Positions 30,356-52,952 are shown, numbered from the stretch's first letter. The stretch: 64,000 bases of DNA from an uncultured Planctomycetota bacterium (GCA_963823665.1 CAWGMQ010000003.1:96001-160000), one strand, 5' to 3'. Numbers and translations: made by a program. The notes: a model not told the origin generated them from the sequence alone.

Positions 30356-30985
30356 AGACACCCGCTCTGCTCCGGAATCGACCCGACGGCGCCTTACGAT
30401 GGTCCGACGCCGAAGTCGCACTGCGCTGGCGCAAGCTCTTTCCGCAACATGACGATTCGATTGGACGGGCCGGGAATTGAGGCAGGACAAGCGTGGGGCG
30501 ATCCCTGAAGACCTGGCTCCCATTCTGGACCGGCTGGGCGGGTGTGGATCGATCGAATTGGGTGGACACAGTGCGCGATTTCGGTCGCGTGTTCAAGCAA
30601 GCGGCAGGTCGAGCGAGTTCGCTTCGGCTCGATGCACCGCGTTGCTCACGGCGCTGGTTTCAGGGCAAGGCAGCCGCGCAAGTCGCGTTTCTGTAAGTAA
30701 TCGGCTCGCTCGCTTGCGAGCCCTGGTCGTAGCGGCAGGCGCGGAATTCGATTGGATTCGAAGCCGGCCAGCGTGGTTTCCTTCGCCGGCGCGGCAAGCG
30801 ACGCGTGCAAAACGCCGGCGACGTAGCCGAGCGCACCCAGTTGCCGACCGTGTGTGGCAAAACGCGTGCTGTGCGCGTCGTCGGCCGCGAGGCACCCAGC
30901 GATCGCGGGACGCAAACCGGTGCGAGCCACGTGCGTCTGGCTTTCCCCGGCACCGACTGTCGACTGCAGAAGAGGGTGGGTGTCT
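30356..30985 (+). mobile_element. Decayed HUH/Y1 (RAYT-like) transposase remnant with its putative end
   Basis: Fragments read WSDAEVALRWRKLFP, DWTGRELRQDKRGAIPEDLAPILDRLG and WVDTVRDFGRVFKQAAGR (stop 30696); bounded by AGACACCC (30356) and GGGTGTCT (30978). Confidence 0.65.
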
Positions 30986-33003
30986 GGGTCCCCCCAGTCG
31001 CGAAGCCTGTCGTAGGTAATCCCCAGCTTCTGAGCGAGGTCTGGCAACCACCATTCGTCGCTCTCGAGCTGTTCACGGCCAACGGCCCCCCCGGTGAGAC
31101 CGCGGCGACATAAGAGCTGACGCACCGATGTCGGCGTATAGCCCTTCTGGGTTCTTGGCGTCCGATACCCCTCTCGAGTGAGATGGGCCGCCAGCTCCTT
31201 GATCGTCAGGCCTTCCCGACGCAGTTGCACGATCCGATCCATCATCCGATCGTATTCACCCAGAGACTCGTACCGGGAAACCGACCTGATAATCTCGTGA
31301 CTCGTGGTCTGGCCGCCTCGCCACGTAATCGCAACGCCGGCGCGTTCGGTGTTAGCGCGAACATCGACCACGATGCGCTCGGTGATAAGCCGTATGATCT
31401 CCTTGCGATCCATCGCCGTCGTCTCGGGCGCGTGCCAGAGTGTCGGAATGTCGGCGGCAACCGCCAGGATCCGACCGCGCTCCTCCTCCGTGAGCCGAGT
31501 CGGTTGTTCATTTAAGAATCGATCATACTCTTCCCGCAATTCGCGTTGGGCACGTAGCGCAGCCTCCCACTTTTGCTCCAGCCCCCGAGCCACCAAGCGA
31601 TTCTCGGGCTCGACGGCTTGGTACTGGCGTTCGGCACGCTCGACCTCATAGGAGGCACGCTCAAGCCGTTGCTCCCAGTGCCGGTTGAGATGCTGACGTT
31701 CCCGCTGCAAGCTCTCGATCGCCTTGAGGCTCAACTCCAGGGCTGCCGGTTCCAAAGCCAGGAGGACCTGCTTTGTTACCAGGTCATCAATGGCCGCCGA
31801 CGCCAGCCCCCGACAATCGGATCCCTCGAGGTGCTTTCGCATGCACACGTAGTATGCGGTCGACTTGCTGCGGTAGGTCGCGTGCATCCGCCGCCCGCAG
31901 TTCCCGCAAACCATGACACCCGCCAGAAGCGCCTTGCCGACACGAGGCGCTCCGACTGATCCGGGCTGGTAGCGATTCTGTTGAAGTCGCTCTTGGTTGG
32001 CCAAGTAACGGTCCCACGTGATGTAAGCCGGCAGTCGATCCGTTTGGAGCACCGTCCACTCTGACATCGGCATCTCGCGCATCTTGACCTTGGTGCCACC
32101 CGAAGCCGATTTTTTGTGATCCACGCGGCGACGCCCATAGGAGTAGGCTCCGGCGTAGATCGGATGGTGGAGCATTCGAGAGACCGTGGCCAGCGTGGGC
32201 CGGCGCCATTCCAGTTGGCCCCGCCGTGAGCCTCGCTGCACTCGCATTCCCAAGCGGATTTTGTTCCGCACCAGATAGCGGTAGACCCGCCCGAAAGAGC
32301 CCAGCTCGTCGAACGTGTCGAAAACCAATTGGACGATCGACCTCGCCTCTTCATCGGGGTCGATAACGACCTCGCCGGTGGGTAGTTTTAAGTACCCGCA
32401 CGGTACGCTGAGGATTAATTCGCACCGCTGGGCCTTGTAAAGTTTGCCCCCTTCCAGGCGGTTGTGCATCGTAACCAGCTCATATTCACTCATGGTGCCT
32501 TTCAGCCCCAAAAGGAGACGGTCGTTGGGGTCCCGCGGATCGTAGAGACCGTCCTCATCCGCCAGGATCGTTCCGAAGATGGAACACATCTGTAATAAGT
32601 GATGCCAATCCTCGTTGCAGCGGGCCAACCGACTCATCTCGATCCCCAGGATCAAACCGACGTGTTCCATGGTAACTTCGGCCAGGATGCGATGAAATCC
32701 GCTCCGATTTTCGGCCGTCTTGCCGCTGAGTCCTTGGTCGTCGTCGATGATCAGGATACGGTCGCGGGGCCATCCCAGTGCGATCGCGTGGTTGACCAGC
32801 GCGTACTGGCGTTCGCGTGATTCTCGGTGATCGCGGATTTGCTGCGGAGAGGATTGGCGGACGTAGATGATCGCCAGCAATCCGAGGTGCCAATCCGTGA
32901 TCAGGCCGGGCCGGACGCGACGTACGGTAGGATTCGCGGTGGGCACGGCCACCGGTTGCGGGTTTGCCGAGAGGAGCGGGCAGATGGTTTCACGAGCGCT
33001 CAT
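30986..33003 (-). CDS. Large serine recombinase (resolvase + recombinase + Zn-ribbon), C-terminally truncated
   Basis: IYVRQSS catalytic Ser, DDDQGLSG, EMSRLAR, GLKGTMSEYE, HPIYAGAY, CGNCGRRM..YYVC, YQAVEPENRLV; plausible homology ends at RLRDW, at the GGGTGTCT motif. Confidence 0.9.
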
Positions 33004-33150
33004 GCGTCACCTCCTTGCCGTCTGGAGGCTTCGCCAGTTGCTGGGCGATGACACGGGTCAGTGCGCTGAGAATTCGTTCTCGAAGCTCGACGGGGAAGGT
33101 CACCCAGATCTGCTGAGAATTGGGATGACTGTTTACTTTCCCGCGGCGCG
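32990..33150 (-). CDS. Small ORF overlapping the recombinase start
   Basis: QQIWVTFPVELRERILSALTRVIAQQL..GKEVTHERS; its 3' end provides the RBS of the recombinase; start uncertain. Confidence 0.55.
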
Positions 33151-33319
33151 GGGGGGACGACGGTGGTTCGAGATTGGAGCGAGACAACCCTCCTTGCTGA
33201 GTTCTCCGCCGGCGCTCCTGATACCACTCCGCCAATCGGAGTAGCGCCGGCAACCCGATGATAGCCACCGTCGACGGCGTCTGGCGAGGTGTGACTAGAT
33301 GAGCAGTTTGTTCCACAGA

Positions 33320-33368
33320 TCCGGATCAGTGGGAGCCCTGGCGGAGCGATCCGCCAAGGCGACCCGGC
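33320..33368 (+). ncRNA. Group II intron 3' fragment (distal half of domain V plus domain VI)
   Basis: 48/49 nt identical to 35036-35084; followed by GACATCC, the 3' half of the target GGGTGTCT^GACATCC seen intact at 35335. Confidence 0.85.
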
Positions 33369-33408
33369 GACATCCTCCAGGAACAGTTCCCTTGTACTTT
33401 CCGATGCG

Positions 33409-33800
33409 CTACGTGGTCGATGCTTTCCTGGATTTGCTTCCCTTAGCGGCCTTGACGGCTGAATTCTTGCGCGTGGAGGACTTGGCGATATTGGAGAGCG
33501 ACGTTTTTGCGGTGCGTTCGTCCATGAGTGGGCCGGTCAAGTCGGCGAGTGTGCCCCCGAGGACGAAGAGGAGCGTCACCATCGCATCAAGCGTTACTCG
33601 GGGCGAGCAGTTCTCGATTTTGGCCACCCGCGATTGATCCACGCGGGCCATTGCGGCGAGTTGCTCCTGCGTGATCTTGCGCTGCGTGCGCAACCGACGA
33701 ATGGCCATAGCCGTCGTGATTTTCAGGTCGATCAGGAGCGACTCTTCGTCGCTGAGGCCGAGGAAATCGGCGGTGTCCCCCTCCACCCATCCCGGCTTTC
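33409..33800 (-). CDS. XRE/HigA-type HTH antitoxin (native N-terminus probably lost)
   Basis: GWVEGDTADFLGLSDEE..IRRLRTQRKITQEQLAAMARVDQSRVAKIE. Confidence 0.75.
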
Positions 33801-33814
33801 GGTCCACATCTCTG

Positions 33815-33943
33815 ACTTTCCGCATTGTGAAGGCGTCTCAAGAGCATACCCGCCTCGCGTCTGCCTTCGTTGGAGAAGGGCGGAGACTTGACCTCGCCCT
33901 TCAACCAATGCAGTCGTTTGACCTCGGCAGGCCCCGTGCTCAT
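33815..33943 (-). pseudogene. HigB/Gp49-like RelE toxin N-terminal fragment
   Basis: KRLHWLKGEVKSPPFSNEGRREAGMLLRRL, then similarity stops; the catalytic C-terminal part is missing. Confidence 0.7.
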
Positions 33944-34127
33944 CCATGAGGTTTAGGACAAAACTGTCATAATGTCAATCTGAATCGGCTGCATTGATCA
34001 GGAAATTGCTCGAATCGTGAAACGGTTGGTGCCGGATTTGGCTTCAGGCGATCGGCTCGCCCATCTCTTCGCGGAGGGGGAGGAGCGCGGGGAACGGCAG
34101 GGTTGCCAGACACCCACAGCGTTGCCA

Positions 34128-34288
34128 GGCAGGGTTGCCAGACACCCACAGATGGCACCGCGGAAAGTGGGTGTCTTTGCGTCACCCATCGATCGCAGAA
34201 CGCGAACGGGTGCGAGTTACGAGTGCCTGGCTTCTAACAAAACCCACTCCAGAGACCGGGCATCTGGCTGGCCAGAGTTTGGGTGTCT
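34128..34288 (+). repeat. ~160-bp repeat module, copy 1
   Basis: Near-identical to 35410-35571; the distal ~100 bp recurs at 42488-42587; contains AGACACCC and two GGGTGTCT. Confidence 0.85.
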
Positions 34289-34351
34289 GGCTTCCCCTCT
34301 GGCTTCCCCTGGCTCCCCTGGGTGTTTGGCTTCCCGAGAGGGTGGGTGTCT

Positions 34352-35084
34352 TTGCGTCAGGAAAAGCTCGAGAAAGGGGGAAGTGCCTCGAAACACAGAA
34401 ACCTTTCATCGCGACCCTGCGGGTTAACGAATCCCGCCCGGCAGAGCCTGGCCGGCAGCCGGAAGCAAGTCTTGCGTGGGGAGGGGTGACCCTCACTGCG
34501 AAGCGTAGACAGCGAGTCCACATGCCATGCTATCGAGCCCCGAAATACTCATCGTGGGAGCCTCCGTTGTAGACACAAGCGGGGGCCGTGTCGACACGCC
34601 GCAATGGCCTGGCGTGTTCGGTCCTGCCGGGGTCCAAGAACATGGCGCAGGGACGCGAGGGTTGCTCGGGAACCTGAGAGCCCCATCCGTCTCCACTGAC
34701 ATTTCCGGCTCGGGAACCGGAATACCAACTCCCCGGCCCACGACCCCGCGTCGGGTCGCTGGGAGCGAACAAGACGCAAGGGTGGTATCGCCAAGCGAAG
34801 GCAACGAAGTGCGGCGAAAGGGGCGGATGGGAGTCGGAGTGCTCCGTAGTAGCAGTGAAGCGGGGGAATGGGCCCTCCCAGACCCTGTGGAGCGAAGGGG
34901 GCACCGTGTCGTGGACTGGACGCCGGAACCACGCCGAGGGCATTGGACCTCAGAGCGCGTCACCGCGAGGCGACCAGATCGTGTGAGGGACAGCGACGCC
35001 GCGACATGACGAGCCGGATGCCTTAATTGGGCACGTCCGGATCAGTGGGAGCCCTGGCGGAGCGATCCGCCAGGGCGACCCGGC
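34352..35084 (+). ncRNA. ORF-less group II intron (733 nt)
   Basis: 5' TTGCG; domain V GAGCCGGATGCCTTAATTGGGCACGTCCGGATC (35011); domain VI hairpin ending GGCGACCCGGC; removing it restores GGGTGTCT^GGCTTCCC; EBS1-like AGACAC (34571) is complementary to the exon end GTGTCT. Confidence 0.88.
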
Positions 35085-35118
35085 GGCTTCCCTCTGGCTT
35101 CCCTCGCAACGACCGAGA

Positions 35119-35350
35119 GAGATTCCAGACGCCCATCTTTTGGTCACGGTCGACCGGATTCCATTCATTCGCGACTCGCACAATCGGCGCACAACCACGA
35201 GATTCCAGACACCCATCGTTTGGTCACGGTCCCCCGCATTCCATTCATTCGCGGCTCGCACGTTCGGCGCACAACCACGGCCTCTGGTCATTTCCAGCAC
35301 GCATCAGGCGAGTGTCCGACGCTCCGCAGACGGTGGGTGTCTGACATCCC
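35119..35350 (+). repeat. Two tandem 80-bp units plus a ~90-bp module also found at 43662-43750
   Basis: GAGATTCCAGACRCCCATC..CATTCATTCGCG..CGGCGCACAACCAC twice; CGGCGCACAACCACGGCCTCTGGTCATTTCCAGCACGCA..TCTGACATCC is duplicated at 43.7 kb. Confidence 0.8.
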
Positions 35351-35409
35351 GGTGTCTGACATCCCTGACATCCCTTCTTCAATAAGTCCTCGGGGACGAT
35401 GTGAATCGA

Positions 35410-35602
35410 GGCAGGGTTGCCAGACACCCACAGATGGCACTGCGGAAAGTGGGTGTCTTTGCGTCACCCATCGATCGCAGAACGCGAACGGGTGCGAGTT
35501 TACGAGTGCCTGGCTTCTAACAAAACCCACTCCAGAGACCGGGCATCTGGCTCGCCAGACTTTGGGTGTCTGACTTCCTTAGAGTTTGGGTGTCTGGCTT
35601 CA
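35410..35602 (+). repeat. ~160-bp repeat module, copy 2, plus extra GGGTGTCT motifs (left border of the AT-richer island)
   Basis: Direct repeat of 34128-34288; GGGTGTCT at 35451, 35564 and 35588. Confidence 0.85.
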
Positions 35603-35786
35603 GAATGATAGCTGATACGACGCCTGCCCAGCTCTTCCACATCCACGTTTGAAACCCAACCGCTTCGGCTATCTTAGTAATAAAACCGGTTACTTCTTCC
35701 TTCGGTGGCATCGCGGTTAAAATTTTGAAGTCATCATTCGCAATATTATACTGCCGCTTTATCTCCTCTCTTGTAGGTATGCTCAT
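35603..35786 (-). pseudogene. Truncated hypothetical gene (N-terminal fragment)
   Basis: GGAG RBS, then MSIPTREEIKRQY..WAGVVSAIIL running straight into the GGGTGTCT repeat. Confidence 0.45.
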
Positions 35787-35890
35787 GAGTTGTCTCCATG
35801 TTATACGCCGCACTTAGCTAACCCATTGTCACAACAGCGTAATCTGATTCAGGGCGGACGTCTACAGGCGGATAGCCACAACCAAAGAGA

Positions 35891-35929
35891 TTGTATCACT
35901 TGACATCAAACGATAACAAACGATACAAG
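35891..35929 (+). promoter_or_regulatory. Putative sigma70 promoter with direct-repeat operator
   Basis: TTGACA at 35900-35905; CAAACGATA twice (35907, 35917); inverted TTGTATC/GATACAA; ATG at 35936 has no obvious RBS. Confidence 0.5.
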
Positions 35930-35935
35930 AGACGC

Positions 35936-37948
35936 ATGGCATCCACGCAATGGCTGAATACGGACGAAGCGGCTCAATATCTGGGGCTTGGGAAAACATT
36001 TGTTTACGCAATGGCTCAGGAAGGTAAAATCCCGGCCAATAAAGTGGGTAAGCAATGGCGGTTTAACACTGTCCATCTCGACGAATGGCTTCGATCGAAA
36101 AAGGACATCAAGTCGTTCTTTAGCACTGTTGTTTTCAACATCGCTGACAACACCGAGCTTCGCCAACCGCAACAAGATGGGTATGACCGAATCTATGAGT
36201 TTTTCACGCGAGGCGGTCGCGTTGCAATTGTGCAATTTCCGGTAGGGTGCGGCAAGACCGGGCTTGCTGCAATCGCTCCATTCGGCATTTGCAAGGGCCG
36301 CGTTCTGTACATCGCTCCAAACCTGACGATAAACGGCGAATTATACGATAATCTGAACATTAGCAACCGTCAAAAGTGTTTCTGGCGGCGGCGGCATGTG
36401 CTCGATGAGAAAGACATGGCAAACGGGCCGTACGTAACGACACTTGACGACTCGAATGTTAATGTCTGCCAACAATCGCACATCATCGTTACGAATATCC
36501 AAGAGCTGGCGTTGGTAGACGAAAAGTGGCTTCACAAATTCGGCAGTGATTTCTTCGACATGATCGTTGTCGATGAGGCACATCACAATGCGGCTGCGAG
36601 CTGGCAGAAAGTGTTTCAGCAGTTTCCAGAGGCGAAGGTCTTAAACCTCACTGCAACCCCTTTCCGAAGCGACAAAAAGGAGATACAGGGCGACCTTGTT
36701 TACCGCTATTCATTCAAAAATGCCGCGATTAAAGGCTACATAAAAAAACTGCGTGCCAGTTATGTGGCTCCAGACGAAGTAGTGATGTTCACGGCGGAGG
36801 GCAAAAAGACGACTTACACCCTCGCCGAAGTTATGAAAATGAAGGAAGATGAATGGTTTAGCAAAAACATCGCCTTATCCGAAGCGTGCAACACGAATAT
36901 CGTAAATAACAGTCTGGAAAAGCTCGAGCATCTGAGGCTGACTGGAACACGACACCAGGTTATCGCCGTGGCGTGTTCGATTCGGCACGCTAAGCAGGTT
37001 GCAGCACTCTACAAAGAGCGGGGCTTCTCTTGCGAAATTCTGCACAGCCACATGAAAGAGGATGAGCAGACGCAAGTACTGCTCAGCCTGCGAAACGGGA
37101 CGCTTGATTGTATTGTTCAGGTCGCGATGCTGGGTGAAGGTTTCGATCATCCCAAGCTGAGCGTAGCGGCGATCTTTCGCCCATTCCGCACATTGGCCCC
37201 GTACATCCAGTTTGTCGGCCGGATCATGCGGGTCATCGTGCAAAATAACCCAACGCACCCAGATAATTACGGCCACATCGTGACGCACGTCGGCATGAAT
37301 CAGGATGTGTTGCTGAAAGAATTTCGCGAGTTTGAGAGGGATGACGAAGAGTTCTGGGCAAAAGTCATCGGCGGTGAAGAGCCCGAGCCCCCGGGCAACG
37401 TGACATCTGGGGCTGCTCGCCTCCGTGGCCACAACGACGTGCGGATCCACGAAGAGATCGTAGACAATCTGTTTGAGGAAGCGTTCCTGGACGAAGATGA
37501 CGAAGCCATGTTGAAGGCAATTCGCGAGCAGCTAGAGGCACTTGGGCTTGATCCTGCGGCTGCCCAGGAAATGTATGAAAAAGCTAAACGGGGACGTTCC
37601 GGCCTGCAAAAGGTCGATGCTGCGGAACCTTTTGCAGTGCTCCCACAGAAAGCATTTCAAGAGGCCCGAATACTGTTATTAGATGATGTAAAACACCACG
37701 CCAAGATACTGCTTAACCGATGTGAATTACCGCTGATGGGCATGGAGCTTCAGGCGAAAAAAGCAATCCTGGGTCCGAATCTGGCGGTGGCGACCATTAT
37801 GTTCAATAAGGAACTCGGTAAGAGGGCGGTAAATAAGGAAGCTCGCTCACAGTGGTCGGTAGACGATTTCAAAGCCGCGAAAGACCTCCTCCCGGATATC
37901 CTGAACGCATTAACCCGTCAACTGAAGAAAGTACTCGCGGATGAGTAA
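35936..37948 (+). CDS. Excisionase-like HTH (HTH_17) fused to a SF2 DEAH helicase (ResIII-like)
   Basis: WLNTDEAAQYLGLGKTFVYAMAQEGKIPANKVGKQWRF; LRQPQ, PVGCGKT, VDEAHH, LTATP, MLGEGFDHP, QFVGRIMR. Confidence 0.88.
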   Translation: MASTQWLNTDEAAQYLGLGKTFVYAMAQEGKIPANKVGKQWRFNTVHLDEWLRSKKDIKSFFSTVVFNIADNTELRQPQQDGYDRIYEFFTRGGRVAIVQFPVGCGKTGLAAIAPFGICKGRVLYIAPNLTINGELYDNLNISNRQKCFWRRRHVLDEKDMANGPYVTTLDDSNVNVCQQSHIIVTNIQELALVDEKWLHKFGSDFFDMIVVDEAHHNAAASWQKVFQQFPEAKVLNLTATPFRSDKKEIQGDLVYRYSFKNAAIKGYIKKLRASYVAPDEVVMFTAEGKKTTYTLAEVMKMKEDEWFSKNIALSEACNTNIVNNSLEKLEHLRLTGTRHQVIAVACSIRHAKQVAALYKERGFSCEILHSHMKEDEQTQVLLSLRNGTLDCIVQVAMLGEGFDHPKLSVAAIFRPFRTLAPYIQFVGRIMRVIVQNNPTHPDNYGHIVTHVGMNQDVLLKEFREFERDDEEFWAKVIGGEEPEPPGNVTSGAARLRGHNDVRIHEEIVDNLFEEAFLDEDDEAMLKAIREQLEALGLDPAAAQEMYEKAKRGRSGLQKVDAAEPFAVLPQKAFQEARILLLDDVKHHAKILLNRCELPLMGMELQAKKAILGPNLAVATIMFNKELGKRAVNKEARSQWSVDDFKAAKDLLPDILNALTRQLKKVLADE

Positions 37949-38198
37949 ACCGCCATCCCTGATTAGTGGCTGCAACGGTAAACCGGAAGCGTACCAAGCA
38001 AGCCGTCAGGTAACGTGTTGCCGTTGTGACACGAAAATCGTGAAAGACGGTGCTGCTGTCAAAATCCCAACGAAGACGCAAGGCTACGCGGCGAAAAAAA
38101 TCTACTGTCTAGTCTGTTTTGCCGCGATCGTTAAACAGACACGCCTGGATTTAACTCACCTTGAGCAAACATTGATCCCGATACACGCCGCACAATGA
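37941..38198 (+). CDS. Small Zn-ribbon-like protein
   Basis: Overlaps the helicase stop by 8 nt; CCRC...YCLVC. Confidence 0.7.
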   Translation: MSKPPSLISGCNGKPEAYQASRQVTCCRCDTKIVKDGAAVKIPTKTQGYAAKKIYCLVCFAAIVKQTRLDLTHLEQTLIPIHAAQ

Positions 38199-38229
38199 GA
38201 GTTGTGCCTGGGCGGTCAAAGGTGACGCG

Positions 38230-38700
38230 ATGATACTTCCGGCAGGGACAGTGAGGTGCAACATGTGCGGCGGTAGCGGTATCTCGAGGCTGAGCAACCT
38301 CGCATGCGAGGAATGCAACGCTTTTGGGTTTCGCCCGGCTGATCCGACACGGACCTTGCGGTGCAACATTTGTGGAGGCAGCGGGATATCGAGGCTATCC
38401 TCACAAAAGTGTGAAAGATGTGATGGATACGGCACCGTCGCTCCACCGAGCTTTGTTCGCGGCGGCGATGACAATGTGGTAAGGAGGGGTTTGAAAATAC
38501 CGTGGCCGAAAGGATTAGGGCAGCGGGGTGACGTGGTGCTTGCCACGGTGGAGATCGCATTGTTCGTTGCAGCAGCGGTTTTCGGAATACTCTGGATTAG
38601 AGCGTCAGGCAGCAGCTATGAAGCGTTGGCCGCGTTCTTCGCCCTAGTAAGCGGCGGGGGCGTCGGCCAGTTGCGTCGCTATCTAGGGCACCGGCAGTGA
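38230..38700 (+). CDS. DnaJ-type CxxCxGxG zinc-finger protein with two C-terminal TM helices
   Basis: CNMCGGSG, CEECNAFG, CNICGGSG, CERCDGYG; two hydrophobic segments. Confidence 0.65.
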   Translation: MILPAGTVRCNMCGGSGISRLSNLACEECNAFGFRPADPTRTLRCNICGGSGISRLSSQKCERCDGYGTVAPPSFVRGGDDNVVRRGLKIPWPKGLGQRGDVVLATVEIALFVAAAVFGILWIRASGSSYEALAAFFALVSGGGVGQLRRYLGHRQ

Positions 38701-38873
38701 ATCGTCGTCTGATCGTGTTCCCGATCCAAGTCGACCACGACATGGGCGGTGAATAGCTCGGATTATCCGACGCCAAGAAGATTGGCGGTTGCTGGGAGGC
38801 GTCGCTTGCCTTACAAGGTAGAGAATCGATGCCTGCGGGTAGTCATGTTGCCAATCACTTAACGATTATTAGT

Positions 38874-39530
38874 ATGGACAAATCCACACTTACGGTCGAA
38901 CTATTGCTGGATGAGGCGAAGATCTTCTCAGAACAAGAATCGGTGCACCCAGAACCGACAATTTTCGGCGTGACCGATGGAAAAGCCATCGGCACCTATC
39001 TCGAGCATAAGTTTCAGCAGCATTTAGAAATAAAGTATGTGCATGCTCCTGGAAATTCTGCGAGCGGCATCGACCTGCCCGGCCTCGCGGTGGATATGAA
39101 AGTAACAAGCATTCGTCAGCCGCAGTCGTCGTGCCCTTTCAAACATGCTCGTCAAAAGATCTACGGCCTCGGATATTCGTTGCTTGTTTTCGTATATGAC
39201 AAGACAGATGATTCAGCAAATCGCACCGCGATTTTGAACATCCAACACACCATCTTTATTGACGCCAAACAGACGGGCGATTTCCAGATGACCAAGGGCT
39301 TGCGCGAAATCATCGAACGGGAAGGCAATGAGGACGACCTGGTTTCTTTCATGCAAGACAAAATGCTGCCGGTGGATGAGATCGAGGTCCGTCGGATCGC
39401 ACAGGATCTTTTGAAATCGCCCCCCGAGCAAGGCTATCTTACAATCTCGAACGCACTGCAATGGCGGCTTCAGTATGGTAGGGTGATCGTACAAGCCGGT
39501 GCAGTAGCAGGGATTACAAGGATACGGTAA
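38874..39530 (+). CDS. Type II restriction endonuclease (resembles the NspV family)
   Basis: GVTDGKAIGTYLEHKF, GIDLP..VDMKVTS (PD-D/ExK), QPQSSCPF, NALQWRLQY; directly upstream of an MTase. Confidence 0.8.
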   Translation: MDKSTLTVELLLDEAKIFSEQESVHPEPTIFGVTDGKAIGTYLEHKFQQHLEIKYVHAPGNSASGIDLPGLAVDMKVTSIRQPQSSCPFKHARQKIYGLGYSLLVFVYDKTDDSANRTAILNIQHTIFIDAKQTGDFQMTKGLREIIEREGNEDDLVSFMQDKMLPVDEIEVRRIAQDLLKSPPEQGYLTISNALQWRLQYGRVIVQAGAVAGITRIR

Positions 39531-39534
39531 ATCA

Positions 39535-41055
39535 ATGGCTTCTGGAAGGATCGCAGCGGTGCCCGATGAGTTCGGCGATTTTCAAACTCCTGAAACCTTG
39601 GCGGCGAGTGCATGTCGGCTTCTTTCGGGACGTGGCCTGAACCCGGCTTCTGTTCTCGAACCGACCTGCGGTGTGGGCAATTTTCTGCTAGCGGCAATCG
39701 AGCAGTTTCCCGATTTGACGACCGGAAGCGGCATCGATATTAATAATGACTATGTGTGCCTGGTTAGAAAAAGGCTAATCGACGGCTCTTATGCCGATAA
39801 GGTGAAAGTCCTTCAGGAGAGCTTCTTCGACGTCGACTGGAAGACCATTCTCCACGATTTGCCGGAACCAATCCTCGTTGTCGGAAACCCGCCGTGGGTG
39901 ACGAATTCGACACTCGGCGTGATCGGAAGTTCAAACCTGCCGAAAAAATCCAACTTCCAGAATTTCAACGGGCTGGAAGCCCTTACCGGCAAAAGCAATT
40001 TCGATATATCGGAATGGATGCTGATAAAACTGTTGGAAATGCTCGATGGACGTAGGGCAACTCTGGCCATGCTATGCAAAACGGCGGTTGCCCGAAAGGT
40101 CTTGGTCAATGCTTGGAAAAACGATGTCGGCCTAGCTGGTGCCGAAATCTATCCAATAGACGCCGCGGCGTCGTTCGGTGCTGCCGTCGATGCCTGCCTG
40201 TTGGTCTGCTCTCTGTCGCCCGCCAGTCACGGTCGGGATTGCCGCGTTTTCAAGAGTTTGGAAGATTCAATGCAGGTCGCGACCATCGGCTTTCACGATG
40301 GCCAGTTGGTGGCGGACGTTTCGGCCTACGAGCGTTGGAAGCACTTAAGTGGAAAGGAAGTCTACAAGTGGCGTTCCGGCGTCAAGCACGATTGCTCGAA
40401 GGTGATGGAACTGCGAAGAGAAGGCAATAACTTTCGCAACGGATTTGACGAACTAATTGATTTGGAATTGGATTATGTTTATCCGATGTTGAAAAGCTCG
40501 GAGATTACTAATGGGAAGAGCAAGCAACCGACCCGCTGGATGCTGGTTACACAGAAAGCCGTAGGCGATGAGACATCGGCCATACGATTGGACGCACCAA
40601 GAACTTGGGCGTACTTACAGAAGCAAGGCGAATTGCTGGATCGCAGGGGCAGCTCAATTTACCGGAATCGTCCTCGATTCTCGGTGTTCGGCGTCGGCGA
40701 TTACTCGTTTGCACAGTGGAAGGTGGCAATTTCTGGATTTTACAAGAAGCTGCAGTTCGCGACTATTGGTCCCCATGAGGGAAAGCCGGTAGTTCTTGAT
40801 GATACGTCGTATTTTGTGGCGTGCCAAAGTGAGCGGGAAGCCCGATTCATCGCGGATTTGCTAAACTCTGACACTGCCCGCGAGTACTTCTCTGCGTTCG
40901 TGTTCTGGGATGCAAAACGTCCGATAACGATTGACATACTGCGGCGGCTCGATCTGGCCGCTTTGGCGTATGAGCTCGGCTCGATCGACACTTTGGAGAG
41001 TTTTCGGGCAAAATCGCGAACGCACCAGCCCTATCGCCAAGTTGAGCTATTCTGA
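39535..41055 (+). CDS. N6-adenine DNA methyltransferase (gamma class; resembles M.NspV)
   Basis: FGDFQTP, VLEPTCGVGNF (motif I) before VVGNPPW (motif IV); C-terminal TRD WRSGVKHDCSKVME. Confidence 0.88.
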   Translation: MASGRIAAVPDEFGDFQTPETLAASACRLLSGRGLNPASVLEPTCGVGNFLLAAIEQFPDLTTGSGIDINNDYVCLVRKRLIDGSYADKVKVLQESFFDVDWKTILHDLPEPILVVGNPPWVTNSTLGVIGSSNLPKKSNFQNFNGLEALTGKSNFDISEWMLIKLLEMLDGRRATLAMLCKTAVARKVLVNAWKNDVGLAGAEIYPIDAAASFGAAVDACLLVCSLSPASHGRDCRVFKSLEDSMQVATIGFHDGQLVADVSAYERWKHLSGKEVYKWRSGVKHDCSKVMELRREGNNFRNGFDELIDLELDYVYPMLKSSEITNGKSKQPTRWMLVTQKAVGDETSAIRLDAPRTWAYLQKQGELLDRRGSSIYRNRPRFSVFGVGDYSFAQWKVAISGFYKKLQFATIGPHEGKPVVLDDTSYFVACQSEREARFIADLLNSDTAREYFSAFVFWDAKRPITIDILRRLDLAALAYELGSIDTLESFRAKSRTHQPYRQVELF

Positions 41056-41126
41056 AACGTTGACGCGTCTATTCGGTGATTCAAAACCAAGGCGGGGCAG
41101 GCGTGCGGAGTGCGAGAGCGATGGAG

Positions 41127-41798
41127 TCAGGCCAGAGCGTCATCGGAATCTTGCTCCTGACCATCCCGATCGAACGAGTCCGCATACTGCTGTAATACTT
41201 CTGACATTTCATACCGGCTTTGTTCAAGATCTGTCTCCACATTCAAGCCGAAATCGATGGCTTCTAGACCGGCGAGAACCTCGCTCATGGTTGTAGAAAA
41301 GGCGTGTAGACTGATTGTCTGATTTAGTGGGGTTGCATGCTTGCCATCCCGATCGATGGGGTAGCGATAGGAGAATGATTCGGGATCGATGCGGGCGAAC
41401 TCGGACGCCGTTGTCAGTGTTTTTTGCAGGAAGAACTCCAGATCATTGTCGTTTGGGAACAATCGTCTGAGTATCTTCGCGGCAGCTTCGGCGAGCGGCA
41501 CAAGCCGGTGGTCGTTCCAGAGTTTTCTTGGGAAGTCATGAATACCCTTAAATGCACACAGCAAAGCTGGCGTATAGATGACGTGCTTTAGATACAATTC
41601 AAATGCGTGCCGATATAAGAAAACAGCAGGATACGCTTCGTAATCGCGGAAGCCGTACTCCCTGGCGAGGAGTTCCTTCGCCAACATCTCTGCTGCACGG
41701 CTATATCCTTTGGCAAATACGCCGAAGTGATCCTTCGGTGTACTGCCAAAGCCAATACTGAAATCGTGTGTGTTGCTGATCGTGTTGTAAAAAGCCAT
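41127..41798 (-). CDS. HEPN-like hypothetical protein
   Basis: YPAVFLYRHAFELYLK..HRLVPL..DPESFSYRYP follows the E-xx-LK / H-x-L-xx-L / RYP HEPN pattern. Confidence 0.6.
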   Translation of the reverse strand: MAFYNTISNTHDFSIGFGSTPKDHFGVFAKGYSRAAEMLAKELLAREYGFRDYEAYPAVFLYRHAFELYLKHVIYTPALLCAFKGIHDFPRKLWNDHRLVPLAEAAAKILRRLFPNDNDLEFFLQKTLTTASEFARIDPESFSYRYPIDRDGKHATPLNQTISLHAFSTTMSEVLAGLEAIDFGLNVETDLEQSRYEMSEVLQQYADSFDRDGQEQDSDDALA

Positions 41799-42162: not shown

Positions 42163-42420
42163 TCGCGCCAAGAAGCTCGGAAAGGGAGGATCATCTTAAA
42201 TGTGAAACCTTTTAGTCGAACCCTGCGGGTATACAATCCCGTCCGGCAGAGCCTGGCCAGCAGCCGGAAGCCAGTCTTGTATGTGGGGAGGCGACTCTCA
42301 CTGCGAAGCGTAGACAGCGAGATCAAACGCTGTGCGATTGAGCCCCGAAATTTCCCTCTTTGTTCTGAGCCCTCGTCCTTGTCTGACGCGGGGGGCCGCG
42401 CCGGGCATTAGCGACACCTG
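42163..42420 (+). ncRNA. Group II intron 5' fragment (domain I), second lineage
   Basis: Colinear with 34352-34600 (ACCCTGCGGGT..CCGGCAGAGCCTGGCC..CACTGCGAAGCGTAGACAGCGAG..GAGCCCCGAAAT); EBS1-position loop reads TGTCTG (42380); no domain V/VI found. Confidence 0.82.
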
Positions 42421-42487
42421 GACCCACAAGCGTGCCCGGTCAGACCGGGGTCGAGGGACATGGCGAAGGGGGACCGCGAGGCACCGA

Positions 42488-42587
42488 TCGATCGCAGAAC
42501 GCGAACGGGTGGGAGTTACGGGTGCCTGGCTTCTAAGAAAACCCACTCCAGAGACCGGGCGTCTGGCTCGCCAGAGGTTGGGTGTCA
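42488..42587 (+). repeat. ~100-bp repeat module, copy 3
   Basis: ATCGATCGCAGAACGCGAACGGGT..AAAACCCACTCCAGAGACCGGGC..GGGTGTC, as at 34188 and 35470. Confidence 0.85.
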
Positions 42588-42783
42588 GTCTTCCGCTGTG
42601 CGCGCTGTCGGCCGCGAGTCATCTGGCAATCGCGGGGCGCGAACTGGCGCGAGTCATCTGTGCCTGGCTTTTCCCTGACTCAGTCCGGAGAATGGTAACC
42701 GGCTCGTCTCGGGCTCCTCTCCGTGTCATGTGTGCCTGGCTTTTCCCGGAGCCGAGTCCGAAGAATGGATGTTTGGCTTGCCC

Positions 42784-43422
42784 TTACCAAGTTGCCGGTT
42801 TATGGATCGTTCCGTGGGCATCGGTGAGGGTCCCCGGGAGTTGGCATGTGGGCAGAAGCGAGGTATCCACGAGCAGCGATTTCGTGGCCACCTTGCGTAA
42901 TTCAAAGCTGGGTTTCCGGCCGGGCCTGCACGGATGCAGCACCAGCACGTTCTTTTTGAATTTCTGCCGCACGAGGCGGATCGGCTCCGCCAGGTCGGAA
43001 TCATTGGAGACGATCACCGCTGTTTCATACTCGTCGTCGAAAGCGTCCACCAGTAGGTAGGTCGCAATGTTCACGTCCGACCCTTTCTCCTCGCTCTTCA
43101 TCACCTGCACCGTCTTCGGTCCCGTTGCCGGCATCGGGTGCAACGGCATGCGTGTCGGTTTTTCCAAGTAACTGCCGAGGTGAACCGTCAGATGAGGCAG
43201 GGTCCGCAGGGCACGCAGATAAGTTTGCTGCCGAACCCGTTGTTGCGGATTATTCGACCGGGCGTTGACGTGAGCTGTGAAATAGCGGATGCGAGTGATC
43301 TGATTGCGTGGAGGAGGAAAGGACGCTTGGCAAAAAGTAGCGAGGTCAAGCCATTTATGTGGGGTGCCTTTCAGGCAGCCATAATACAGGTTGAAGCCGT
43401 CGATGTAGACGTTCGTCTTCAT
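42784..43422 (-). CDS. NYN/LabA-DUF88 (PIN-fold) ribonuclease
   Basis: VYIDGFNLYYG, IRYFTA, EEKGSDVNIA, VSNDSDL acidic catalytic motifs intact. Confidence 0.92.
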   Translation of the reverse strand: MKTNVYIDGFNLYYGCLKGTPHKWLDLATFCQASFPPPRNQITRIRYFTAHVNARSNNPQQRVRQQTYLRALRTLPHLTVHLGSYLEKPTRMPLHPMPATGPKTVQVMKSEEKGSDVNIATYLLVDAFDDEYETAVIVSNDSDLAEPIRLVRQKFKKNVLVLHPCRPGRKPSFELRKVATKSLLVDTSLLPTCQLPGTLTDAHGTIHKPATW

Positions 43423-43542: not shown

Positions 43543-44025
43543 CAACGGCATTCTAGTGGCGTCGAATCGCAGCATGTAGGTTCGCTTGTGAAGCATGGCA
43601 CCTGTGCGACTGGGTGCTCAATGATCCCCACTCCTCGAATGCAGCAAGGAAGGAAATACGCCGTTCGGCGCACAACCACGGCCTCTGGTCATTTCCAGCA
43701 CGCAAGAGACGCGTGTCCGACGCTCCGCCGACGGTGGTTTCTGACATCCGTGGACGGCCCATACAAGGATTCCCGATCGCGGCGCCGGCGAGTACCGCGC
43801 GAGTGAGTTCACGCTTCGCTGAACGAGCATTTTCCGAAAAGGGCGCGCGCTCTCCCCGCTGGATTTCCGCCTTGATCTCTGGGGGAGTGTCAGAGATTTT
43901 GGTGTGGCCCGGCCGTTCATCCGGCTCGCCCGTTCAACTTTCGTTGACGGAGGAGTCGCATGCTGGGGATCGATCTCGCTCTCGGGCGGCCGAGCGTGAA
44001 ACCACCGATGGCGGAGGCTTGCGCG

Positions 44026-44262
44026 ATGCGTGACTCGAATCGACGTGGCTTCCTGGCAACCTCAGCCGCGGCGGCAGCCGCGCCACTCTTGCCGGATCTT
44101 GGCTTTCTTGCCCCGGTCAGCCGGGCGGCCGCCACCGATACGCGAATCGACCCCAATCAGGTCCGCCATAGCCCGAGCATCGGTCAGTTGATCAAGCTGA
44201 TCCAAACGACGCCACGGGACAAGTGCGTCCCCGTCTTCCTCGAGCAACTTCAGGCCGGGGGT
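44026..44262 (+). pseudogene. N-terminal fragment of a Tat-exported protein, truncated at AGACACCC
   Basis: SNRRGFL twin-arginine signal; IKLIQTTPRDKC..EQLQAG, then the motif at 44266. Confidence 0.65.
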
Positions 44263-44358
44263 TTCAGACACCCGCATTTCCCTCTGTGAGGGAATTCAGG
44301 CGGCTGACAGCGCCCAGGAGCTTGCAAGGAAATTGTGGATGTCTGCAACTCCCGTCGA

Positions 44359-45864: not shown

Positions 45865-46008
45865 CGTGGGCGAAGCCTCGACCCACACGTCGAGATCCTT
45901 CGTGTAGCGCGGCTCCGTGTACTTAATCACCGCAAATCCGCCTACGACGAGGTAGCGAACTTTATGCTCGTTGAAAACTCTCAACAGATCTTTGAAGTCT
46001 GAGTTCAT
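45865..46008 (-). pseudogene. Truncated nucleotidyltransferase (MNT-like)
   Basis: MNSDFKDLLRVFNEHKVRYLVVGGFAV..PRYTKDLDVWV (GG..DxD), cut after ~48 aa. Confidence 0.75.
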
Positions 46009-48708: not shown

Positions 48709-48993
48709 CCATGCCCGTCATCTTCGTCAGCTCTGGATCAGGTTCGATTTTACAGGCATGATTCGAGATCGGCCACAACCCATCAATCATCGTCAAGCCT
48801 GGGCGGACCTCTATTCGGACGCCGGTTGGTAACAAATTAGTAACGGCTTCGGCAACGTCAGCCGCATACGGCCACATCGTGAAATCACCAAGGTGGCGAC
48901 GCGCTAGCCCTGGATTCGCAGACTTCAGGCGCAGCGGCAACGTTTTCGGGCGGGACTCAAGGAAAAGGGGAGAAGTCAGGGAGAAGTCAGACA

Positions 48994-49028
48994 TTGCGCA
49001 AGAAGCTCGGAAAAGGAGGATCATCTCA
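48994..49028 (+). ncRNA. 5' tip of a group II intron (second lineage)
   Basis: CAGACA^TTGCGCAAGAAGCTCGGAAAAGGAGGATCATCT matches 42157-42197. Confidence 0.7.
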
Positions 49029-49337
49029 AATCTCCGCAGATGACGCCGATTGACGCAGATAAGAAAGAAAGGGGCGGCCGTATTTGCTCGGATTGCCTTG
49101 GAGCTGGGACGGTGGCGGCCAGATATTCCGCCGTAGCGGCGCCTTGGGCGGCTGTTACTTAGGCGGGCGATCCAGCCCTTCCTCGCCGATGTCCTCCAGG
49201 AACGCGAGCGTCCCTGCGCAGATGTCGGAACGTCTGCAGCACTTGGTCATACGGCGGGTAGGCCGACAGATCATCCCGAGTCTCGCTGCCCCAGTGATCG
49301 CGCTGGGTGCCGAGGTACGCGACCTTGATGCCGCTGA

Positions 49338-50706: not shown

Positions 50707-50720
50707 TCGGAGTTACCCAC

Positions 50721-51100
50721 ATATCTCTCATCGCCTTTTGTTTGCGTCGATTCACAGCTACCTCGACCCGTCAAACGGTGCGGCGCTCGCAACGCGCGAG
50801 CTGCTCGAATTGCTGGCGGGGCGCGGGTGGGATTGCCGGGCCTTCACTTGCGGCGTGCTTGACTATCAGAACGAGACGCCCATTGAGAATGTCCTGAGTT
50901 CGATCGAGCGGCCGGGTTCGCGCGTCGGCGCGGCGCTCAGCCTTGGGGGCGAAGCTGAGGTTTTCGATCTGGACGTCGACGGTGTGCGCGTCACGCTCTT
51001 GCCCACGTCGTCCAGCCGCGGCGACAAGTCACCCAATCCGCGGGACGGGGCCATGTACCTCGACCTGGCCACTGCGGTGCTCGATCGGTTTCCGGCCGGA
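50721..51100 (+). pseudogene. Glycosyltransferase (GT4-like) N-terminal fragment
   Basis: RLLFASIHSYLDPSNGAALATRELLELLAGRGWDC; no clear start; ends after VLDRFP. Confidence 0.6.
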
Positions 51101-52952
51101 GATTCTGCGACTGGTCCGTTGTCAAATGCGAACCATGCTGGTCGGAACGGGCCAACTGGATGCGGGAATCGCGACGGGCGTCTTTGGCGGGTGACGGGTG
51201 GTGCGTGGCGGGTGGTGCGACTCAATTGAGAATGCGCGTTGGCTCTCGATTCGGGGGTCGCGATCGCTTTGATCGTTGGATTCATTGCGATCGGAATAAA
51301 AAGCCTAGATTTTCTGGGCGATGAAATTGCCGAATCGCGAAAGTCGATCCATGTTATAGGTAGCTCAGTCTCGATCACTGACATCGGAGTCGGTGCGAGG
51401 GGCCACCCATGTCTCTGGAACCGGGAATGATTACCGACGGAAGAGTTCCAGGCGCTCGAAGTGTTCCAGGCGGTCGAAGGCCCTGCCTGTTGACCTGCGC
51501 CCCATTGAATCGGCGCAACCTTGCCCGCGCCGGTGGGCGGGTACAGACTGAATTCAGATCAAGATCGGGATTCAGAATGTGGCCCCTTTACACTAGTGTA
51601 CGGATGCTGGAAGGCAGCCGTAAAGCGCCACTTTGCGCCACTTTGTGCCACGTGTTCGACGATCGTTTCGGGTGGACTCATTCTTTGCAAGTTCAATGGG
51701 CGTCAACAAATGGGAACAGGGCGAGGCGTTCTTCGGCGATGGCGCACGCGAGTGGCGCGTGCCACCAAGAAGCGCCACGACAAATCGATGGCTTTGTTCA
51801 CTATGTATTTTCGTCCCTTTTTCGCTGCACTCGGAGGGGTGTCTGGCTTTCCCGATGTTGGCCGGGTTCGGGTCTGAGACAGAAAATGGCGCGGCCATGG
51901 CGTTGGGACGCCCGGGTCCCGAGCAAGCGATGCAAAGCCTTGGCGTGGGATGAGATCGGTGAGTGGAATGTGACTATTTTTGGGCAAATTCGTCTCATTT
52001 CGTCTCATTTCGTCTCACTATCCAATCCATGTGAGAACCGAACGTGACTCCACCTGCATTGAGCAAGATTCTATCAGGCGACGGACGAGGCCCAGTCCGC
52101 ACTGCCGGAAGCGAGCAATTTACAGTAGTGTACTGATGCTTTAAGGCCCTCGTAATATTGCCACTTTTTGCCATTTTTTCGAGGGATTCAGCGATTGCTT
52201 TGGGTAGAGTGGCTGTTCTGTAAATGCAATGAGCGTAATCAAATGGGAATAGAGCGAGGCGTTCTTCGGCGATCGCACTAGCTTTTGGCACGTGCCACTG
52301 AGAATTGCCACGATCAGGTGCTGGTCTTGTTCACTATGTTTTGGGCCGTGATTTCACGGAACTGGAGGAGGATGCCGTTTCAAAGCGTGTTGAACGGGCA
52401 GAACATTATGAAATTATTTCAACCTTAAGAACCTATGCTGATTGAAGTTGCGTCTTCACGCCGGTCGCGGAAGTGCGGTCGAAGGGTGTGTCAGACCCAA
52501 ACCCGCGCATAATATTACTTGGCGGAGAGTTCGTCGTCGTCGCGGACGGGCGGTAAGGCGGCGCGAACCTGACCGTATCCTGGGCAACCATGCTGGTTGG
52601 TCCGTGGCTCGAATCGCGCAAGCCGACCGAATCGCGGGAGTGGAGCGCGGAGGCGTCTGGCACGCATCGGTCGATGGCGCGATTGATTGCATGTTGCGTT
52701 GTTTCAAACGCGGGGCGGGAACGCGGGGCTGGACCGGACCGAGAGACAGAGAGAGATACAAGAATTTCTCGCGTGGATTACCATAAATTACCAAATATTA
52801 CCATGGGTGAAACACTTTCGATGAGGCCGAAAACCCAAGTCGCCTTTGGTGTTACGGAGGGCGTCGTGCTCGTAGAGTGCGTGTGAGACCATCAACCCGG
52901 AGCTTCGCCGTCGTGCGAAGGCTATTTTCATTTTGCACGGGCGTGGCGAAAT

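Follow-up and report, generated by a model that had tools for sequence, protein, structure and literature searches.

A stretch of 64,000 nt from an uncultured Planctomycetota bacterium (the window, part of assembly G000) holds an accessory region in which genes break off or end at one 8-mer, beside a remnant of a HUH/Y1 transposase. The locus raises the question of what this 8-mer is and what it does to the DNA around it. We found that the 8-mer, GGGTGTCT, is the core of an outward-pointing terminal repeat belonging to a Y1/HUH element, to its deletion derivatives and to miniature elements of ~150 bp. The motif scrambles accessory regions and does not build tidy integron-style cassettes. The features of the window are listed in Table 1.

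Table 1. Motif ends, element parts, introns and cargo in the window (positions counted from its first nucleotide).
Positions	Strand	Feature	Remark
30326..30363	-	Terminal motif, tandem tip re-duplications; left island edge	G001 homology ends at 30329; joined 4 nt behind stop of DUF4058 remnant fused to SPFH gene
30368..30696	+	Y1/HUH subclass-2.3-like transposase remnant	5' part lost, frameshifted
30697..30993	+	Element 3' untranslated part and native right end	8-mer 30978-30985; terminus ~30993
30993..33003	-	Large serine recombinase	Truncated by element end after residue 670-671
33320..33375	+	Intron A 3' stub (part of DV and DVI), then outer motif half	Stub ends 33368
33409..33943	-	HTH antitoxin-like cargo gene, broken upstream partner	Second copy G000:C10:2347432
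34096..34351	+	Miniature element type 2	Both tips tandemly duplicated
34352..35084	+	ORF-less group II intron A, 733 nt	Follows 8-mer 34344-34351; EBS1 34571-34576
35085..35110	+	Outer half of interrupted motif (3' exon)	Tip duplication
35119..35374	+	Miniature element type 1 (~150 bp, 35199-35351)	Left part: 80-nt duplication; right: tip duplications
35409..35601	+	Second miniature element type 2	
35602..42150	.	Low-GC cargo: HTH-ResIII/helicase, type II restriction endonuclease, putative methyltransferase, unknown ORFs	No second copy found
42150..42460	+	Motif end on opposite strand (42150-42162) and intron B 5' fragment at 42163	EBS1 42380-42385
42474..42783	+	Element 3' untranslated fragments	End in degenerate right ends (42580, 42767)
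42784..43422	-	NYN-domain gene, stop abuts end	Adjoins recombinase in G012
43662..43749	+	Right half of type 1 miniature element	Degenerate motif
43960..44273	+	Tat-signal gene	Cut at 44259 by inverted end (8-mer 44266-44273)
44337..44353	+	One-mismatch end facing Vgb-like stop	Vgb-like gene 44359-45492, strand -
48970..49031	+	End with tip duplication and 38-nt intron B 5' stub	Stub starts 48994
51837..51853	+	Isolated end, typical outer half	Amid other repeat families

Abundance and distribution of the motif

The 15 exact copies of GGGTGTCT/AGACACCC in the 64,000-nt window, all of them at the positions given in the initial annotation, were recovered, and a scan of the whole window gave none outside 30356-51844, as had been claimed for the core regions. 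Chance would give a mean of 1.23 copies and at most 5; 15 were reached in none of 100 dinucleotide shuffles. The near-matches reported alongside were of different kinds: those at 42580 and 44337 are one-mismatch copies, those at 42767 and 43734 are degenerate ends, and those at 42158 and 48989 are motif ends split by an intron (intron B, see below). A logo of 376 motif contexts gave the consensus T-GGRTGTCT-G-N4-CC and no fixed tetranucleotide foot (GTAG or GTGG). Single motif ends folded no better than shuffled sequences, so the stable hairpin of REPs and REPINs was not seen.

Counts of TGGGTGTCTG, obtained by pattern searches and from stretches fetched for their motif richness, were 194 in G000 (control, 8), 126 in G001 (control, 7) and 0-28 in 39 other relatives. 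The motif repeat is dispersed as singles, dimers and clusters. A neighbour within 15 kb was found for 61 of 104 motif sites (null 23, maximum 40) on the 7 contigs covered by the test (14.75 Mb; all but C1, C2, C9, C11 and C12). The clusters occur in accessory regions with toxin-antitoxin (TA) and restriction-modification genes. This clustering in accessory regions agrees with the initial annotation, but most clusters have no transposase beside them.

The Y1/HUH element and its miniature derivatives

The transposase is a multicopy protein of 408 aa with H75-L76-H77 and Y188-VDL-N192-P193 (Y---NP); the H, H, Y, N and P residues are invariant in 7 of 7 aligned proteins. With 111 residues between HUH and Y it resembles the long TnpA-Y1 proteins of subclass 2.3, which are described with a spacing of ~110, Y---NP, long insertions, a C-terminal tail and several diverged copies per genome (10.1101/279083). 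A search gave 48 matches, and 20 loci included five full-length genes that are 87.5-100% identical to L030; the genome thus has several copies that are not near-identical. The protein scored 33.7 bits against NF047646 (cut-off 80) and is not single-copy as group 2/3 RAYTs are. The Pfam Y1_Tnp profile misses this family: its 11 matches in G000 belong mostly to other Y1 families, and one is a distant 2.3-like protein.

Relatives of the transposase carry the motif at their flanks in the outward orientation (upstream 19/28, downstream 24/33; inward 0 and 1, respectively). Of the 16 genomes, 11 have relatives with such ends at their flanks, and in the other 5 no motif was found at the flanks scored; loci were picked for motif richness, the kin genomes are non-independent, and one of the 16 may overlap G001. 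The RAYT-like remnant that had been placed between the first two motifs of the window is real, although on its left side the join to the motif falls within the gene and not at the native left end of the element, which lies ~230 nt upstream of the transposase start.

Full-length, deleted and ~150-bp miniature forms of the element are dispersed in the genome. The remnant in the window has an internal deletion of ~670 nt that also occurs in other copies, and one deletion junction is common to 5 dispersed copies. As the searches yielded no clean filled/empty pair that shows the two ends of one element, and the empty site of a single miniature element, sought twice in G001, gave no syntenic flanks, transposition as a unit is argued from these shared deletion derivatives. 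Type 2 miniature elements have inverted motif ends and an inner part derived from the 3' untranslated region of the element. The inner sequence of type 1 matched no transposase flank, and its parent enzyme is therefore only assumed. Judged by local GC skew, a weak proxy, type 1 copies lay on the C-rich strand in 19 of the 23 clusters scored (p=0.003), and neighbouring copies were co-oriented in 41 of 45 pairs. The strand bias of transposase genes (2 vs 4) and introns was not significant.

Group II introns in the element ends

Part of the mosaic is ascribed to the homing of group II introns, which the initial annotation had missed. Rfam intron domains were found at 34428-34642 and 42233-42460, with RF02005 (domains I-IV) scores of 139.5 and 103.9 bits against a threshold of 49. 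Intron A sits exactly after the 8-mer: 20 of 20 distinct 5' junctions of the family follow TGGGTGTC(T/C), its EBS1 AGACAC pairs with GTGTCT at 6/6 positions, and its 3' exons restore the outer half of the motif. Intron B inserts on the opposite strand and within the 8-mer (42163, 48994); its EBS1 UGUCUG pairs with CAGACA (6/6), and CAGACA precedes 9 of 13 copies. Among 40 parsed relatives, 35 show covariation of EBS1 and exon. Judged by these pairings, the motif is a homing site for two related families of group II introns, one on each strand.

There are 6 RT-bearing copies of intron A (judged by length) and 13 ORF-less ones; the RT-bearing form passes TIGR04416 (326.7 vs 300). DV- and DVI-like stems were obtained by folding, and no DV/DVI Rfam family reached its gathering threshold. 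Classes E and F are recognized by IEP phylogeny, a 5-nt DV loop and the lack of an endonuclease; the DV loop is of 5 nt here, and no HNH match was found. A third intron, of RT-HNH type, is nested between DV and DVI, and head-to-tail intron copies were seen at locus L077. The exact motif copies at 34169, 34344 and 35451 precede either an intron 5' end or an 8-nt look-alike of one. The look-alike, seen behind 34169 and 35451, may be a scar left by an intron or a variant of the motif that occurs naturally; the latter is suggested by a similar natural end in one record (L155).

In a phylum-wide search G000 alone had the intron A junction in quantity (26 vs 6 control); 1-2 matches each came from nine of the 250 further genomes, and the 10 matches inspected were not intron-like. 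No spliced or empty form of the intron was seen in the contigs of public runs, RNA runs included.

Junctions 6-9 nt beyond the 8-mer

DNA outside the element begins 6-9 nt past the 8-mer, mostly in a run of C (leftmost placement accounts in part for the C found there). When compared with unbroken homologues, 25 of 58 junctions fell at +6 to +9 (range 0-44); tip duplications or SNPs explain some of the other 33, not all. Tip duplications were present in 112 of 376 motif contexts, and in 80 of these 112 the donor end lay at +6 to +9. The partner sites vary, are often nearby and are unrelated to the fixed donor tip, sharing at most 1-3 C's with it. Such variability of the partner points to one-ended joining.

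These results refine what had been said of individual genes. The serine recombinase is indeed cut, but at 30993 (compared with a 94%-identical intact copy in G012) and not at 30985; the Tat gene is cut at 44259 (compared with a G021 homologue) and not at 44266. The ORF with a supposed cut at ~35602 gave no Pfam or NCBIfam match and no homologue among the loci compared. The stop of the NYN gene (42784) abuts the end at 42767-42783, that of the Vgb-like gene lies ~6 nt past the end at 44337-44353, and the low-GC block (49-54% GC at 36-42 kb vs ~60%) is bracketed by motif ends, all as described. The link of the motif to a HUH/Y1 family and its fixed terminus hold, but the join does not lie inside the 8-mer.

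Interpretation and alternatives

As a whole, we consider it probable that a TIRtron-like element has the motif as its terminal inverted repeat, that a putative HUH/Y1 enzyme joins DNA at this repeat, and that two introns home into it. The enzyme would act in trans on single-stranded DNA at the replication fork, bind the 8-mer, cut 6-9 nt beyond it and join the fixed tip to loosely specified sites. One-ended joining of this kind would duplicate tips, delete adjacent DNA, truncate genes and cause rearrangements, and at times it would move a neighbouring segment. Dispensable regions would be the main places where such events survive, so that ends would accumulate there along with TA pairs and foreign genes. 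The ORF-less copies of intron A would be mobilized in trans by the RT-bearing ones, and intron insertion would part the 8-mer from its tip.

The integron-like alternative, a dedicated system whose HUH enzyme would cut out gene cassettes, insert them between motif sites and assemble them into ordered arrays, draws on the clustering of the sites, the co-orientation of adjacent type 1 copies, and spacers that carry TA pairs and short unknown genes. G000 and G001 share 32 segments at different places that are 87-98% identical (syntenic core mostly 82-88%), although the 87% identity filter itself favours high identity. The ends of such segments lie near termini more often than expected (within 10 nt, 5/61, null 1.2, p=0.005; within 120 nt, 18/61, null 9.6, p=0.004), a relaxed motif gave a similarly weak result (16/61 within 60 nt, null 8.9), and one TA pair has its ends 7 and 9 nt from termini. 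Yet just 2 of 29 segments had both ends within 60 nt, and 51 of the 61 ends lay further away. Genes beside the miniature elements are randomly oriented (19/19/18/13), junctions cut genes mid-frame, the co-orientation of the repeats follows GC skew, and the motif is present at one of four island edges compared with G001 and absent at the other three. No integron integrase was found (TIGR02249, 0 of 18 matches over cut-off; genome 92% complete), and no paired R boxes of attC were seen by eye in type 1. The outcome resembles a cassette graveyard, and the evidence fits imprecise one-ended joining and not a site-specific cassette system. We therefore regard the integron-like arrays of the initial annotation as unlikely. 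A composite transposon spanning the 70-kb accessory region was also considered, and dropped because its far edge (C3:170520) has no motif.

It is distinctly unlikely that the ends are passive relics, with junctions that owe nothing to the transposase and arose in a junk region through slippage, recombination by the host and selection. Near-identical repeats (introns 97-99%, miniature elements 80-95%) would be substrates for recombination, microhomology is seen at the intron stub (33320) and at the transposase deletion, an inversion relative to G001 breaks in other repeat families, and the enrichment of termini at stop codons is mild (10/87 within 30 nt). A fixed tip with unrelated partners is, however, unlike homologous recombination or slippage, and many genomes show this tip pattern again at flanks.

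That the introns make the junctions and assemble the cassettes, as proposed for IIC-attC introns, is very improbable. The stretches fetched from G000 contain 21 5' ends of intron A, concentrated in the arrays, and recombination between copies could shift DNA between ends; but introns sit at +0 (A) or inside the 8-mer (B) and junctions at +6 to +9, 36 G001 stretches with the same arrays have no intron A 5' end, and other genomes have duplicated tips at ends that carry no intron.

An assembly artefact of a repeat-rich metagenome bin (16.5 Mb in 12 contigs, with no public run examined that spans the mosaic) is scarcely probable against the base-level junction rule, cut genes that are intact in other genomes, repeat copies that differ in flanks and substitutions, and an independently assembled congener with the same repeat families in similar clusters. 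In the public runs at most 27% of words were present, and contigs of four soil runs cover intron and miniature elements, not cargo; a 785-nt contig (X2) joins intron A to the flank of another G000 copy, and its run may be the source sample.

Comparison with known systems

The precedents are TIRtrons and RmInt2 in the repeats of ISRm17; our searches of the open-access literature gave no report of this motif, of introns residing in the ends of HUH elements or of cassette arrays built by HUH enzymes. TIRtrons/TIRYTs, as described, likewise carry a Y1 gene between terminal inverted repeats that are not GTAG REPs, and their repeats also occur as singles, dimers and clusters (PMC3733652). They differ in consensus (GGGGWSAS for the majority of described TIRs, against TGGRTGTCT-G-N4-CC) and in enzyme (HTH-bearing, 2.1, against the long subclass-2.3 type) (PMC3733652). 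In the present case a joining tip of fixed position was mapped, and so were derivatives with deletions that were copied as units. For subclass 2.3, the description reports no REP-like flanks by automatic or manual search (10.1101/279083), whereas here a short conserved motif lies on both flanks.

REP/BIME/REPIN systems with TnpA-REP share ~150-bp inverted doublets, tandem amplification and variable junctions; the E. coli enzyme is described as cutting C|T near the repeat and needing a 3' C for strand transfer (PMC3333891, PMC8266576, PMC5581495). In contrast, the present system has no GTAG foot, no strong hairpin, a multicopy transposase and clusters in accessory regions. IS elements that target REPs are reportedly the subject of one paper.

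RmInt2, an endonuclease-minus group II intron, homes into the terminal inverted repeats of ISRm17, also with two sites per element and head-to-tail copies (PMC4615759). The host here is a HUH element with its miniatures, and there are two intron families on opposite strands, mostly ORF-less A copies and a nested RT-HNH intron. Integrons/CALINs and IIC-attC introns are similar in that repeats alternate with short genes and TA pairs and that the introns colonize the repeats they target, but IIC-attC introns are described as homing by hairpin (PMC7923331, PMC4424553) and those here pair through EBS1. Integrons/CALINs differ further: here IntI is lacking above cut-off, the cargo is not co-oriented, and the junctions are one-ended and imprecise.

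Implications

Parasitism at this locus has three layers, namely the HUH ends, introns lodged in these ends and an intron lodged in the introns, and bacterial introns without an ORF are present in unusual profusion. For HUH proteins of subclass 2.3 the defining paper, as far as its description goes, names no DNA substrate (10.1101/279083), and the motif is a candidate. Together with the tip at +6 to +9 it gives a concrete substrate and a predicted product, so that whether RAYT-like enzymes move themselves or other DNA can be tested with one protein and a few oligonucleotides. A more ambitious reading, which we advance tentatively and think rather doubtful, is that subclass 2.3 enzymes are true transposases and not domesticated RAYTs, with one-ended capture in which the ends serve as handles that move genes between lineages and leave polarized arrays of TA, restriction and unknown genes. 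An outcome like that of integrons would then have been reached through a rolling-circle-like mechanism, and two intron families would have adapted in evolution to one strand of the handle each. Should this mode of capture prove real, it would let genes flow in planctomycete genomes of very large size.

Abundance and clustering of the motif

The 8-mer is the core of the outward-pointing terminal repeat (consensus TGGRTGTCT-G-N4-CC) of a Y1/HUH element with a 408-aa transposase. In the initial annotation, 15 exact copies had been reported between positions 30356 and 51844 of the window. All were found at those positions and none in the rest of the window; in shuffled windows the mean count was 1.23 and 15 was never reached. 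The observation was confirmed. In the source genome G000, a 16.46-Mb assembly that holds the window at C3:96001-160000, GGGTGTCTG occurred 257 times against 52 for the reversed control, and TGGGTGTCTG 194 times against 8. The congener G001 had 126 copies of TGGGTGTCTG (control, 7), and among 39 other relatives of G000, which are mostly planctomycetes, the count was 0–28 per genome. When sites on seven contigs were collapsed, 61 of 104 had a neighbour less than 15 kb away, compared with 23 expected.

Position of the junctions

A logo of 376 contexts showed that conservation extends to a C run ~6–8 nt past the 8-mer. The tip (the outermost end of the motif) was re-duplicated in 112 contexts. The first tip copy ended at +6 to +9 (nt beyond the 8-mer) in 80 of these duplications, whereas the second could begin at any point between 38 nt inside and the last base of the 8-mer. 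For 58 of the 354 termini queried, the DNA outside had an unbroken homologue; judged against these homologues, 25 of the 58 junctions fell at +6 to +9, the others being spread up to +42. The partner sites had little in common except a C or two, and were often at the same locus. By the mapped junctions, the 8-mer was rightly taken to mark a joining site, with the amendment that it is the recognition core and that the join is one-ended. Passages of PMC3333891, PMC8266576 and PMC5581495 describe the E. coli enzyme as cutting at C|T near its repeat, a 3′ C being required, and as capable of assembling tandem units. By analogy, the present enzyme may act in the same way.

It may be noted that in L322, a locus of the relative G012 (contig C35), the NYN gene (79%) lies ~800 nt from that of the recombinase (94%), the two being convergent, whereas in the window they are co-oriented, 10 kb apart, and each abuts a right end.

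Features of the window and of related loci (L, fetched locus; C, contig; DV/DVI, intron domains V/VI)
Location	Feature	Remarks
Window 30201-30329	SPFH gene without its own stop; its reading frame continues into the final ~30 codons of a DUF4058 gene	~830-nt deletion relative to G001
Window 30329	Left island edge	
Window 30368-30696	Deleted copy of the multicopy transposase gene	48 matches (40 of 105 candidates scored)
Window 30993	End of recombinase match to relatives	Residue 670-671; base placed against 94% copy
Window 34352-35084	733-nt element with group II domains I-IV (Rfam)	Many copies at 97-99%
Window 42233-42460	Group II domains I-IV (Rfam)	
Window 44259	End of Tat gene match	
Window 45544-46516	Small gene pair, two diverged copies (97-nt repeat, 96%)	Homologue in G001
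Window 50237-50706, 51500-53380	Other repeat families: 70-92-nt tandem unit and multi-copy segments	Many matches, both genomes
C3:170.5 kb	Breakpoint	Repeats resembling, by eye, those of window 50237-50706/51500-53380
C3:200.5 kb	Type 2 mini end	Joined into a copy of the second 2.3-like Y1 gene of L011
L011:1000-1370 (G000:C10 ~188.5 kb)	At least 5 direct repeats of 36 nt, spacers 26-39 nt; CRISPR-like by eye	Run stops directly upstream of second 2.3-like Y1 gene
L001 (G000:C5 ~1.392 Mb)	IS200-like Y1 gene	Long ~70-nt tandem repeat array before the gene, another family
L068:9493-11914	2.4-kb RT-HNH group II intron between DV/DVI of introns A and B	Also L071, L073, L075, L080, L081; 7 RT copies of identical score
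L072:3731-3900 (G000:C11 ~568.7 kb)	Mini end, then at +0 a different insert beginning GTGCG	Possibly a further intron at the motif site

The Y1/HUH element and its miniatures

Intact reading frames of the transposase were found in L014, L025 and L030, the 408-aa protein being encoded at L030:510-1733, and among 20 loci there were five full-length genes, with 87.5–100% identity to L030. The protein has HUH at residues 75–77 and Y188-x3-NP, a spacing of 111 residues. The marks seen in it are those of TnpA-Y1 subclass 2.3 in 10.1101/279083, where a search of the flanks of this subclass is reported to have yielded no REP-like repeats; the present element is probably a member. Transposase relatives were examined at 43 loci of 16 genomes, one of which may overlap G001. 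The outward motif stood upstream in 19 of 28 scorable flanks (inward, 0) and downstream in 24 of 33 (inward, 1), and 11 of the 16 genomes had the motif at such flanks. One internal deletion junction was common to five dispersed copies of the element; a deleted, defective version has thus been copied as a whole. Left ends of the long family are directly adjoined, in L007/L018 and in L003/L029, by short Y1 genes that belong to a different subclass.

TIRtron, as presented in parts of PMC3733652, has the same layout as the present element but a different consensus. The present system operates as HUH systems of the TIRtron/BIME type do, its join being one-ended. A canonical REP system was rejected as its identity. 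The motif could already stand in the supplements of 10.1101/279083 or in the TIR figure of PMC3733652.

Two types of miniature elements (minis) share their ends with the transposase element. Type 2, with inverted motif ends, stems partly from the element's 3′ untranslated region. Type 1 (~150 bp) was present in 47 copies in the scanned stretches of G000 and 42 in those of G001, and its interior gave no match to the transposase flanks. No transposase adjoins most of the motif clusters; hence, any action there would be in trans.

Group II introns in the ends

The initial account of the mosaic had overlooked a layer of group II introns, brought out by Rfam. No DV or DVI family of Rfam reached gathering, although DV/DVI-like stems do fold. 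Two intron families, A and B, occupy the motif. Family A gave 20 distinct 5′ junctions, every one of them directly after TGGGTGTC(T/C), and its 3′ exons restore the outer half of the motif. Among 20 copies of intron A with both ends, 13 were ORF-less, two had an RT, four had an RT together with an RT-HNH intron nested between DV and DVI, and one was ORF-less with the nested intron. The loop that pairs with the 5′ exon (EBS1) reads AGACAC in intron A, its partner being GTGTCT. In intron B it reads UGUCUG, and insertion followed CAGACA, on the opposite motif strand, in 9 of 13 junctions, drawn from the two genomes together.

For relatives of the introns, 80 of 497 loci were kept and the 5′ end was parsed in 40, of which 35 showed 6/6 pairing of the EBS1 loop with the exon. 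Nine insertion sites resembled GGGGWSAS or GGTGTC repeats. A Y1 gene lay <2.5 kb away in 7 of the 80; in two of these, L258 and L270, the intron was just upstream of its start. A preference for HUH ends thus holds for one part of the clade and not for another. Passages of PMC4615759 provide a printed precedent, RmInt2, an intron in the inverted repeats of ISRm17. According to the literature, introns without an ORF are rare in bacteria and occur alongside related RT-bearing introns.

Movement of neighbouring genes

It is possible, though we hold this tentatively, that capture is one-ended, motif ends serving as handles that move neighbouring genes between lineages with an integron-like outcome. 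In the initial annotation, the HUH enzyme builds integron-like arrays of gene cassettes between motif sites. In line with this, minis in the motif clusters alternate with short genes, TA pairs and restriction genes, and 32 accessory segments (87–98% identity; filter, 87%) are common to G000 and G001 at different places, and their ends lie close to termini more often than under the null (10 nt or less, 5 of 61 against 1.2; 60 nt or less, 10 of 61 against 5.5). However, just 2 of 29 shared segments had termini near both ends. Neighbouring type 1 minis were co-oriented in 41 of 45 pairs, but in 19 of 23 clusters their orientation tracks the local GC skew, as expected of lagging-strand HUH targeting. 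Moreover, genes beside minis were randomly oriented (19/19/18/13), genes were cut mid-frame at junctions, the motif stood at only one of the four island edges (the left), and a profile search of G000 for an integron integrase gave none above the cut-off. Ordered cassette arrays are improbable, and an integron was rejected as the identity of the system; the initial interpretation as a whole has support in part. That the mosaic is a misassembly is unlikely.

G001 is without the island, its DUF4058 gene being followed by the gene at C3:170520. The core block at 149.4–170.5 kb is inverted relative to G001, from which the opposite-facing repeats at 126–148 kb and 194–206 kb would follow.

Proposed mechanism

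For the one-ended joining system, the data show the layout, where the junctions fall, where the introns are inserted and how EBS1 pairs; from these we infer the catalysis, the strand, the action in trans and the movement of cargo, most probably as follows. A HUH enzyme encoded elsewhere in the genome would recognise the 8-mer in single-stranded DNA, and the tip 6–9 nt past it would be joined to nearby or incoming DNA. In successive rounds, tips would be duplicated and neighbours deleted or truncated, with a segment occasionally carried along; the record would be kept in dispensable regions only. Introns A and B home into the abundant ends, and every intron copy in turn adds a substrate for recombination.
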